UHGV virus genome: UHGV-0178511
Length of the DNA: 35,205 nt
Strand: one strand, 5' to 3'
Source: a virus
Shown in pieces: positions 1-1,740 of the stretch. The notes under the pieces are model-generated. The model saw only the letters and a list, made by a program, of their open reading frames with translations. It had not been told where the DNA came from and ran no database searches. The position numbers and the translations under genes were made by a program. Within the stretch, counting starts at the first letter, position 1. Every line of letters begins with the position of its first letter.

Positions 1-77
1 CACGGGAATATCTGCGGCAGCAGGCCAGTAATGGGTTAAGTGATAACAGGTGTCTGGAAATATAGGGGCAAATCCAC
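1..77. repeat. Terminal inverted repeat, left copy (exact reverse complement of 35128-35204)
   Basis: Reverse-complemented by hand base by base; identity stops at position 78 (t here versus g at 35127). Confidence 0.9.
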
Positions 78-465
78 TTGCAAAGCCTTTTGCTAGTGAT
101 TTTGAAACACTCATAAGTGTACTAATTCCCTCATCCTTAAAGTTTGTTTTTATAGCTTGCCAGACATCCTTTTGACGTAAGTCAGCAATAAAATCATGCC
201 CTCTTGCTGTCAACCTCAGTGGTACTTCGATCCAACTATATCCAACACCTTCCCCTAACGCTTTGGACAATATATGACCGAACCCAGGTTTTCCATCAAC
301 CCTGACTATTAATTCGTAGTCACATAATAATCGCATATGGAAAATAAAATCTTGGTCATATCTATTAAAGCCATTATCCTCTAGTTCACTAAGCATCGTG
401 TCAGGGCCACGAGTTTTTTCGAATGCGATAAGTAGATCTTTTAGATATTGCTGGTCTAATTTCAT
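1..465 (-). CDS. Hypothetical accessory protein, 3'-truncated by window edge; last 25 codons lie inside the terminal inverted repeat
   Basis: Not in ORF track because no stop in window. ATG at 465-463 with GGAGG about 7 nt upstream; open to position 1. Translation MKLDQQYLKDLLIAFEKTRGPDTMLSELEDNGF...[34 protein letters not shown]. Confidence 0.55.
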   Translation of the reverse strand, partial: MKLDQQYLKDLLIAFEKTRGPDTMLSELEDNGFNRYDQDFIFHMRLLCDYELIVRVDGKPGFGHILSKALGEGVGYSWIEVPLRLTARGHDFIADLRQKDVWQAIKTNFKDEGISTLMSVSKSLAKGFASGFAPIFPDTCYHLTHYWPAAADIPV

Positions 466-493
466 TGCCGCCTCCGTGACATGTCACAGAGAT

Positions 494-832
494 TTATATC
501 ATTAATTTTGTTTCGTGCCAGCCTTTGGTCACCCAGCATTGTGAGTCACCATTACACGGGCATGAATTAACAGGAACTCTCTCGCCGCACTTACCGCACC
601 GTTTTCTGCTGATCGATTTTATACGCCAGCGCACACGTGCATCATCCTGGCGGCTCAGTAACGCGATGTACTCACCAAACTCGCAAGGCGCACGCCTGAA
701 GCGACGCGTGGCACAGTTACGCTCCAGCATTTCAATTTCCTGAGCATCAAGTACAAGCTCCAGCTTACGCATACCGGATGATGCTTGCTTGGCTCTCTGA
801 TCGGCTTTGTGCTCTGTTGCTGATTTAGCCAT
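494..832 (-). CDS. Hypothetical Cys-rich protein (CxxC / CPC motifs), possible zinc ribbon
   Basis: 112-aa ORF in track; ends 28 bp upstream of the next minus-strand ORF start, operon-like. Function unknown. Confidence 0.45.
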   Translation of the reverse strand: MAKSATEHKADQRAKQASSGMRKLELVLDAQEIEMLERNCATRRFRRAPCEFGEYIALLSRQDDARVRWRIKSISRKRCGKCGERVPVNSCPCNGDSQCWVTKGWHETKLMI

Positions 833-1025
833 TCTGCTTTTCCTGCATCAGGAGAAAGACAATCATGGCGGCGCGGATACTTCCGGTATCTTTTTACGCG
901 ATATTCCCCTTCAATGGCACATACAAGAAGAGAGCCATCAACAGGAGTGATTGAGGAATCGACAACCAGCAACGCTTAATTATCTATAGTGTCGTATTTG
1001 CTTCATAAAATATGGCGAATAACAC

Positions 1026-1125: not shown

Positions 1126-1740
1126 TTATCTAAAAGTCTTTCCACTTTTAACATCTAGGTATATTCTGTTCGACAACGTCATTCCTCCGCAATATGTGAA
1201 ATAGATGTTTTCACCCTTATTGCTTGATGCCATCCACCCTCCGATTTCCTTAAAATCGCTTTCCGTGCAGACCCCTTCATTTATTAACTTCCTAGCTGCC
1301 GAAGAAAACTCTTTTTTGTATATACGGTAGTCATCAGATCCTTTGATTAAAGTATCATCTCCGCTCGCATTTTCAGCAGGATCTGATGGCCTTTCACTGC
1401 TAAGATCACTAAGTTTAACCCATTCTGAAAACTTGCCATTAACGATTCCATTTTTTCTTGTGCAGGATTTATTACCTTCTTTAATATATTCGCTTTCCCC
1501 TCCAACACATGAGGCTGAATATGGCTCAGTTATACGAACCCATTCACCTTTTTTTTCTAGAAAATCTACGCCTTCCCTGAAAAATAGTTTCCCAGCCACT
1601 CCACATTTACTTGAAGGGCAGGTATGTCTTTCCGTTCGATCAACAACAACCCATAGTTTTGATTCATTTTTTGCCATTGCCGATGGTATTTGAGATGAGA
1701 CAATTAACGTAAGCCCTAAAATTAGTATTGATTTTTTCAT
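1126..1740 (-). CDS. Secreted Cys-rich protein with N-terminal signal peptide; moron-like accessory gene
   Basis: N-terminus MKKSILILGLTLIVSSQIPSAMA|KNE is a typical signal peptide with AxA site; visibly AT-rich relative to neighbours; AAGGA RBS; hairpin downstream. Confidence 0.6.
   Translation of the reverse strand: MKKSILILGLTLIVSSQIPSAMAKNESKLWVVVDRTERHTCPSSKCGVAGKLFFREGVDFLEKKGEWVRITEPYSASCVGGESEYIKEGNKSCTRKNGIVNGKFSEWVKLSDLSSERPSDPAENASGDDTLIKGSDDYRIYKKEFSSAARKLINEGVCTESDFKEIGGWMASSNKGENIYFTYCGGMTLSNRIYLDVKSGKTFR

Follow-up and report, generated by a model that had tools for sequence, protein, structure and literature searches.

The described proteins closest to the one considered here are ribbon-helix-helix (RHH) regulators, namely the LexA-regulated Escherichia coli protein YbfE (Pfam RHH_1), the CopB/RepA2-type regulators of IncFII, the Mnt and Arc repressors from the immI region of phage P22, and NikR, in which an N-terminal RHH domain is combined with a C-terminal metal-binding domain. 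The present analysis concerns a 112-residue protein encoded on the minus strand at positions 494 to 832 of the window, that is, the whole analysed stretch of 35,205 nucleotides from the virus genome UHGV-0178511. It is named RHH-Zn here, for its predicted RHH domain and four-cysteine (C4) zinc motif. We favour, with moderate confidence, the reading that RHH-Zn is a DNA-binding protein of this RHH and C4 type, that the palindrome GTGACATGTCAC is its operator, and that the window copy is a transplanted cassette under relaxed selection.

The basic arm, strand and two helices predicted for the N-terminal part of RHH-Zn align with YbfE, but the loop between the two helices is five residues longer in RHH-Zn. 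The CopB/RepA2-type regulators are connected to the family through weak RepB/RepA matches, and both they and YbfE are without the C-terminal Cys4 domain. Mnt and Arc are small phage RHH proteins, as is predicted for RHH-Zn, and the extra C-terminal domain of Mnt mediates higher-order assembly on a single palindromic operator; however, neither has detectable sequence similarity to RHH-Zn, and both act at promoters, whereas the palindrome considered here lies at gene 3' ends and near terminators. NikR embodies the same architectural idea, but its C-terminal domain is a nickel-sensing ACT-like fold rather than a Cys4 knuckle, and no search returned homology between the two proteins.

True homologues of the same length, with the basic arm, the predicted RHH domain, the C4 motif and the stop-codon palindrome, are N15 gp46, epsilon15 gp49, TL-2011b gp20 and ZF40 gp22. 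In these phages the gene lies within the early operon (epsilon15 and TL-2011b have it at the end of their early genes, ahead of the terminase genes), whereas the window copy is an apparent transplant in the lambda b region. Native phages also carry further copies of the palindrome, in contrast to the window copy with its single site and what looks like relaxed selection.

A conserved phage gene family

Two features are central to the argument:

494–832, minus strand: RHH-Zn gene, ATG start, 112 residues; assigned from PHROG 536, RefSeq WP_001129736.1, the AlphaFold2 model and the conserved cysteines
476–487 (14-mer 475–488), no strand: perfect 12-bp palindrome GTGACATGTCAC, candidate operator, invariant across diverged flanks

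The open reading frame (ORF) at 494–832 is a genuine, widely conserved and unstudied phage gene of the N15 gp46/epsilon15 gp49 family. It matches the PHROG 536 profile over its full length (E 7.3e-48; residues 1–111 against profile positions 2–114 of 115), and its homologues in a large protein database form 394 clusters at 90% identity, with 181 representatives at 50% identity. Searches with tblastn returned 55 phage records with a homologue, from phages of Escherichia, Salmonella, Klebsiella, Yersinia, Pectobacterium, Pantoea and Aeromonas, including epsilon15 (gp49), phiV10, TL-2011b (gp20), ZF40 (gp22) and Klebsiella, Pantoea, Yersinia P2-like and Aeromonas phages; N15 gp46 joins the family profile at E 2e-31. 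Among gene copies in native phage context the ratio of nonsynonymous to synonymous substitution rates (dN/dS) is 0.08–0.13.

Existing annotation says little about function. In a Pfam scan of the 112-residue protein no family covers it and none scores above threshold; the identical RefSeq protein WP_001129736.1 is a 'hypothetical protein' in many E. coli prophages, where an incomplete 'DNA repair protein' pseudogene and a 204-residue ORF precede it and a DUF2513 gene, a 55-residue ORF, xis and int follow. The label 'transcriptional regulator' borne by homologues is annotation by similarity within an uncharacterised family, and a literature search on epsilon15 gp49, the palindrome sequence, DUF2513, phage proteins combining RHH and zinc ribbon, and YbfE as an RHH protein found nothing relevant.

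Predicted architecture of RHH-Zn

The predicted layout comprises a basic arm (residues 5–19), a beta-strand (about 22–28), helix A (30–43), helix B (52–74), putative cysteine ligands at 79, 82, 91 and 99, and a last helix (100–107). Aligned with hhalign, the 59-member family alignment matches YbfE at 93.8% (E 1.7e-7), residues 7–70 pairing with YbfE 36–94, and within this region YbfE residues 52–89 are Pfam RHH_1 (E 1.7e-10). The YbfE model is matched by 22 of the 59 members when these are scanned singly, a few members give sub-threshold matches to RHH_5, RHH_1 and RepB/RepA (CopB-type) regulators, and hhalign against a single Arc-like repressor gave no match. An AlphaFold2 model built from 28 close homologues reached a predicted local distance difference test score (pLDDT) of 59 and was discarded; the monomer built from the 59 diverse members (pLDDT 93.7) was used and places helices at 5–19, 30–43 and 52–74, an extended segment at 20–29, a loop-rich cysteine region and a helix at 100–107. 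Judged by these alignments, the N-terminal two-thirds of the protein is very probably a DNA-binding RHH domain of the CopG/Arc type preceded by a basic arm.

The cysteines of the window protein fall in C79-G-K-C82, C91-P-C93, C99 and C40, with C50 a recent Tyr-to-Cys change in the window allele. All family members keep C79 and C82, and at least 90% of them have C99. Another cysteine stands 7–8 residues past C82 (C91 here), aligning with the third cysteine of N15 gp46 and others, so that the family motif in the C-terminal third reads C-x2-C-x7/8-C-x7/9-C. Only C79, C82, C91 and C99 are family-wide; C93, the second cysteine of the CPC motif, is restricted to an enterobacterial subgroup. Since four cysteines are conserved as a C4 motif, a zinc site is likely; TraR/DksA zinc-finger matches come from 2–3 of the 59 members and are weak (best E 3e-4).

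An earlier note on this DNA, made from the sequence without database searches, had described a 112-residue cysteine-rich ORF with CxxC and CPC motifs lying 28 bp from the left-end ORF on the same strand, and its coordinates, motifs, gap (466–493, before the next minus-strand ATG at 465) and strand were all verified. It had named absence from related prophages as grounds for rejection, and the gene is instead conserved, both as PHROG 536 and in 634 E. coli genomes. The possible zinc ribbon that it proposed is plausible in view of the conserved C4 motif and the weak TraR/DksA matches, except that the second cysteine of CPC does not belong to the family-wide set. The remote-homology search and structure prediction that it recommended led to the RHH assignment through YbfE, and to no PDB match by sequence or by fold. 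Both the N-terminal RHH domain and the palindrome at the stop codon had escaped it.

A palindrome linked to the stop codon

In the window the palindrome lies 6 nt past the RHH-Zn stop and abuts GGAGG (471–475, minus strand), the ribosome-binding site of the DUF2513 gene. No other exact copy of GTGACATGTCAC occurs in the 35-kb window. When the window is aligned with epsilon15-like prophages, TL-2011b and the Klebsiella phage, homology ends directly past an invariant TGTGACATGTCACG. The consensus form is GTGAC-N2-GTCAC, placed at or just past the stop codon, as follows:

epsilon15, TL-2011b and the Klebsiella phage: GTGACATGTCAC, overlapping the stop
ZF40: GTGACATGTCAC, just past the stop
AH07: GTGACCTGTCAC, overlapping the stop
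N15 gp46: GTGACTGGTCAC, overlapping the stop
L222 (a metagenomic homologue, 40% identical): GTAACGCGTCAC, just past the stop

Gene and palindrome thus move together as one unit, the palindrome standing at the stop codon. Among 90 non-redundant copies of the gene, the site falls between −4 and +6 relative to the stop in 83, a count that includes many close relatives, which are not independent, and loci (L100–L219) that were retrieved by the palindrome itself. The linkage nevertheless extends over at least seven divergent lineages, with protein identity down to 40%. As the C-terminal residues differ among lineages, the palindrome is not explained by coding constraint. Where the putative DNA-reading strand varies, so does the site: N15 (TRRDWVL) and L222 (TELRVKL), against RKLELVL elsewhere, carry a central TG and the half-site GTAAC-GC, respectively, a pairing that is suggestive in a small sample. 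From this linkage, the palindrome is somewhat probably the recognition site of the RHH-Zn protein.

Other roles for the palindrome were considered and set aside. As an RNA hairpin over the ribosome-binding site of the next gene it would have a stem of 4–5 bp, its self-complementary centre points instead to a DNA site for a dimer, and in epsilon15 and TL-2011b no gene directly follows it. As a CRP site it has 4 nt between the TGTGA and TCACA half-sites rather than the 6 nt of CRP half-site spacing. Its proximity to terminase genes or to a cos-like region in several phages might suggest a packaging site, but the window, ZF40, AH07 and N15 show no such proximity.

In the Aeromonas phage 13AhydR10PP (L010 116–127 and 2563–2574), two genes have a variant motif, GTGACCGGACAC, immediately 5' of their ribosome-binding site, GA[AG][GA]GGTTAAAT. 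The RHH-Zn homologue of this phage is one of the two; in this lineage the site is thus upstream of the gene, not downstream.

Further copies and their terminators

Exact copies of GTGACATGTCAC recur in the genomes of native carriers, against a chance expectation for an exact 12-mer of about 0.002 per 40 kb:

epsilon15 (39.7 kb; L225), 3 copies: 2142, 19517, 39612
ZF40 (L226), 3 copies: 5125, 7622, 14944
TL-2011b (L227), 2 copies: 501, 21283

In the podoviruses these copies abut intrinsic terminators at operon ends or beside minus-strand morons. One epsilon15 copy, at the gp49 stop, is about 20 nt before the early terminator; another, 27 nt past the TerL stop, comes directly after a terminator hairpin; and the one overlapping the gp18 stop is 3 nt before a terminator. 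The epsilon15 terminators adjoining its palindromes are at 39646, about 2120 and 19531. The second TL-2011b copy directly precedes the terminator that follows ant, and the Klebsiella phage has GTGACGTGTCAC right past the TerL terminator. The 14-mer was recovered 128 times from IMG/VR, 44 times linked to the gene and 84 times not, and 29 of the 84 non-gene-linked occurrences (35%) lie within 45 nt of a terminator-like hairpin, compared with 1.7% of random positions in the same loci.

Several individual arrangements were also observed. The Yersinia P2-like phage vB_YenM_42.18 (L008 7196–7240) carries a pair of palindrome copies separated by 33 bp, close to a third half-site. The pair is 3.4 kb downstream of the RHH-Zn homologue of this phage, and a G-rich cos-like region lies about 200 bp away. 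In five IMG/VR loci (L118, L137, L147, L166 and L204), iteron-like arrays of GTGAC/GTCAC half-sites surround the 14-mer, the retrieved stretch being without an RHH-Zn homologue. In the Klebsiella phage ST11-OXA245phi3.2 (L011 3836–3915), a TTGACT-N17-TACTGT promoter lies directly past the palindrome, overlaps a perfect LexA box, CTGTTTAAATATACAG, and precedes a 109-residue UmuD-like gene, which would make this gene an SOS-controlled moron between the RHH-Zn gene and TerS.

Origin and state of the window copy

The upstream side of the window gene is composite, and its parts are:

833–879, minus strand: remnant of the NinX gene 3' end, which supplies the AGGA ribosome-binding site of the RHH-Zn gene; from DNA alignment with NinX-context prophages (L013, TL-2011b)
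880–972, minus strand: pseudogene, an internal part of a UmuD-like (peptidase S24) gene; phrog_811, phrog_10470 'UmuD-like'; Pfam Peptidase_S24
1027–1057, no strand: G+C-rich hairpin, terminator-like on both strands, closing the 204-residue ORF; from the sequence and the promoter/terminator scan

Homology to the NinX tail begins about 44 nt upstream of the RHH-Zn ATG. Because this NinX 3' tail is kept upstream, fused to the UmuD-like fragment, the gene and its site are assigned, by sequence comparison, to an epsilon15-like early operon from which they were imported into the b region by illegitimate recombination. The distribution in complete E. coli genomes shows both settings: gene DNA is present in 634 of 5426, with about 450 copies at 90–95% identity in epsilon15-like prophages arranged as [NinX or ASCH] - gene - (Y11B-like) - TerS, and about 145 copies at 95% identity or more in the lambdoid arrangement of the window. 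Of the records in the complete-genome collection, 79 contain the window allele itself, exact or near-exact (at least 99% DNA identity).

On the lambdoid branch dN/dS is 0.25–0.27, compared with 0.08–0.13 in native copies, and between the window allele and its sister lambdoid allele it is 0.97. The sister allele has TGT changed to TGA at Cys40, annotated by PGAP as an 'internal stop'. Of about 24 lambdoid loci from IMG/VR, 9 have this nonsense allele; it also occurs in RefSeq genomes, and its carriers (L035–L043 from IMG/VR; L224:1525–1863, E. coli FORC_081) have DUF2513, xis and int intact. The promoter/terminator scan found no sigma-70-like promoter on the minus strand between the hairpin at 1027–1057 and the RHH-Zn gene, and the window gene would presumably be transcribed by read-through from PL, as in lambda. 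Selection on the lambdoid lineage is relaxed, and the window copy may be partly or wholly non-functional; whether it is active we judge to be evenly balanced.

A functional link between RHH-Zn and UmuD-like genes, adjacent in the window and the Klebsiella phage and nearby in AH07, was considered and set aside: in the Klebsiella phage an SOS-box promoter of its own serves the UmuD-like gene, the fragment in the window is a scar left by recombination, and most contexts are without a UmuD-like gene. PGAP treats the window fragment as a 'DNA repair protein, incomplete' pseudogene. The overlapping ORF 655–972 (105 residues) reaches Peptidase_S24 in residues 1–35 only (profile 54–87 of 116, E 0.037), and the rest of it is out-of-frame NinX tail and RHH-Zn sequence. 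The deposited annotation of phage Chlobot (PP925838; L004 3861–4339) propagates this spurious ORF by mistake: it calls the chimera 'UmuD-like protein' and reduces the RHH-Zn gene to the final 46 codons, under the label 'transcriptional regulator'. The 204-residue ORF (1126–1740, minus strand), with a signal-peptide/lipobox-like N-terminus, and a weak SH3_3 match (phrog_8310, unknown function), looks, together with the hairpin at 1027–1057, like a self-contained moron.

The DUF2513 neighbour

Downstream of the palindrome the left end of the window contains:

77–465, minus strand: DUF2513 (winged-helix-like) gene, Pfam PF10711, E 1.2e-10; first 129 codons intact; WP_000762731.1 in intact relatives
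1–76 (to about 88), no strand: end of an IS2 (IS3-family) element, matching thousands of IS2/IS3-family transposase ends in E. coli

The IS2 end replaces the last 40 nt of the DUF2513 gene, and this junction does not occur in any of the 5426 complete E. coli genomes. The same insertion sequence was also observed in strain PSS-16, within the int gene of the same prophage type. Because the RHH-Zn and DUF2513 genes lie on the same strand, 28 bp apart, and the scan found no terminator-like site between them, their co-transcription is plausible. DUF2513 DNA occurs in 177 of the 5426 genomes, always at 95% identity or more, and stands beside the RHH-Zn gene only in one lambdoid synteny block (about 145–177 of the 634 gene-carrying E. 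coli genomes). In epsilon15-like prophages the neighbours are NinX/ASCH upstream and a small Y11B-like gene or TerS downstream, and other phages differ again. Searches of PADLOC at E up to 1 gave no match for the RHH-Zn protein, DUF2513 or the 204-residue neighbour.

Much of what the earlier note had said about this neighbourhood agrees with these results. Co-transcription with the left-end ORF is plausible on the grounds just given; the 'chimeric' nature of that ORF is accounted for by the IS2 end that took the place of the last 40 nt of DUF2513; and the location is indeed the accessory cargo region between the Red genes and xis/int. Its proposal of a defence or anti-defence pair finds no support, given the absence of PADLOC matches and the confinement of the pairing to one synteny block, and the rival 'better ORF' at 655–972 proved to be a chimeric read-through of the UmuD-like fragment and the NinX tail with an incomplete S24 domain.

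Proposed mechanism and rival explanations

In the mechanism that we propose, RHH-Zn would dimerise through its RHH domain, its four cysteines would bind zinc, and the RHH dimer would recognise the GTGAC-N2-GTCAC palindrome. In native phages the DNA-bound protein would serve as a boundary factor or roadblock that modulates read-through, reinforcing or relieving termination. We infer that this is the most likely activity, and that of a classic promoter repressor less likely, because the palindrome recurs two to three times per native genome and abuts terminators in the podoviruses; the role at terminator boundaries is itself put forward tentatively. In the window the single site separates the RHH-Zn gene from the DUF2513 ribosome-binding site, and the protein, if active there, would act on transcripts reading through from PL into DUF2513, xis and int.

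A number of observations weigh against the reading of RHH-Zn as an RHH protein with its own operator. On the side of the fold, direct Pfam RHH matches of family members are all below threshold, segment 20–29 is extended in the AlphaFold2 monomer with no strand assigned and no dimer partner in the model, searches of PDB sequences with the single protein and the family profile gave no match at E up to 10, and Foldseek of the pLDDT-93.7 model against PDB found nothing significant (against BFVD its sole match was a 46-residue fragment with the same sequence as the C-terminal end of this protein). On the side of the site, linkage is the one basis for assigning it to the protein, and the relatedness and retrieval bias of the 90 gene copies reduce what that linkage can bear; the Yersinia homologue and L221 are without a site at the stop, and the Aeromonas phage has a degenerate version only; two of the three ZF40 copies lie inside coding regions flanking the immunity region, not at terminators; and many IMG/VR 14-mers are in stretches without the gene, some chance matches being expected. 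Finally, the window allele has changes at near-invariant positions, R8H and Y50C.

These last changes also belong to the case for regarding the window copy as a non-functional passenger, a fragment of an epsilon15-like operon fixed in the lambda b region with its frame open but decaying, an explanation that is compatible with the favoured one at the level of the family. Decay would fit the recombination scars on the upstream side, the two- to threefold rise of dN/dS on the lambdoid branch and its value of about 1 against the sister allele, the spread of the codon-40 TGA allele through lambdoid loci and RefSeq genomes, the substitutions at R8 and Y50, the one palindrome left in 35 kb and the failure of the scan to find an own promoter. 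Yet the frame is intact with its ribosome-binding site, the four cysteine ligands and the palindrome are kept, the allele persists exactly or nearly so in 79 complete-genome records, and a dN/dS of 0.25 still shows some constraint since transfer, so that the passenger explanation appears possible though short of probable. We regard as improbable the proposal that the palindrome is a junction or terminator element of another factor, or a recombination hotspot, the protein acting chiefly by way of contacts between its zinc domain and other proteins, such as RNA polymerase, to which TraR/DksA-type zinc fingers bind. Homology among contexts does end right past the palindrome, which stands at module boundaries beside minus-strand morons in epsilon15 and TL-2011b; many copies have no gene nearby, other phages carry GTGAC half-site arrays, and a few family members have the weak TraR/DksA matches. 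Against this, gene and site remain linked in seven lineages whose other neighbours all differ, RHH is a dedicated DNA-binding fold and a perfect 12-bp palindrome suits a symmetric dimer, while downstream of TerL homology runs on past the palindrome, which is therefore not always a breakpoint.

Very improbable, in our estimate, is that the cysteine-rich and DUF2513 proteins form a two-gene defence, anti-defence or toxin-antitoxin-like module of lambdoid cargo. The close spacing on one strand with no terminator between, and the accessory region between Red and xis/int, would suit such a module; RHH proteins are common among antitoxins; and the homologue in the Yersinia P2-like phage vB_YenM_42.18 lies upstream of a gene for an 872-residue SMC-like ATPase, possibly defence cargo, at a position that we take to belong to the part of the genome where P2-type phages carry such cargo. 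The pairing, however, is confined to one synteny block (177 genomes with DUF2513 against 634 with the cysteine-rich gene), other contexts having different neighbours; neither protein matches PADLOC; the two genes were brought together by a recombination event, of which the NinX and UmuD scars remain; and nonsense alleles of the cysteine-rich gene persist beside intact DUF2513, which argues against an antitoxin role.

Returning to RHH-Zn as an operator-binding protein, the family and its palindromes might together constitute an undescribed phage transcription-boundary system, in which the zinc-containing RHH protein would bind terminator-abutting copies and set read-through by RNA polymerase. 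Bound copies at operon ends and at convergent moron junctions would then bring about roadblock-assisted termination or its relief. In epsilon15-like phages and other temperate ones the system would thereby set the timing of the early-to-late switch or keep morons insulated. This wider proposal we hold to be rather unlikely.

Significance

Within the theme of RHH regulators, what is new is the palindrome at the stop codon that recurs across lineages, together with the RHH and C4 architecture. The window feature is ordinary cargo, transplanted and probably decaying, and not a defence module; the terminator-side palindromes at the level of the family are the more notable result. The analysis offers a testable identity, that of a predicted RHH and zinc DNA-binding protein with a defined candidate operator, for a gene that bears the RefSeq label 'hypothetical' in over 600 complete E. 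coli genomes and is present in many temperate phages, among them N15, epsilon15, phiV10, TL-2011b and ZF40. Epsilon15-like phages have no annotated Q- or N-type antiterminator, and if the protein does bind terminator-adjacent palindromes, it would provide a simple new handle on the control of read-through between transcription units in these phages.

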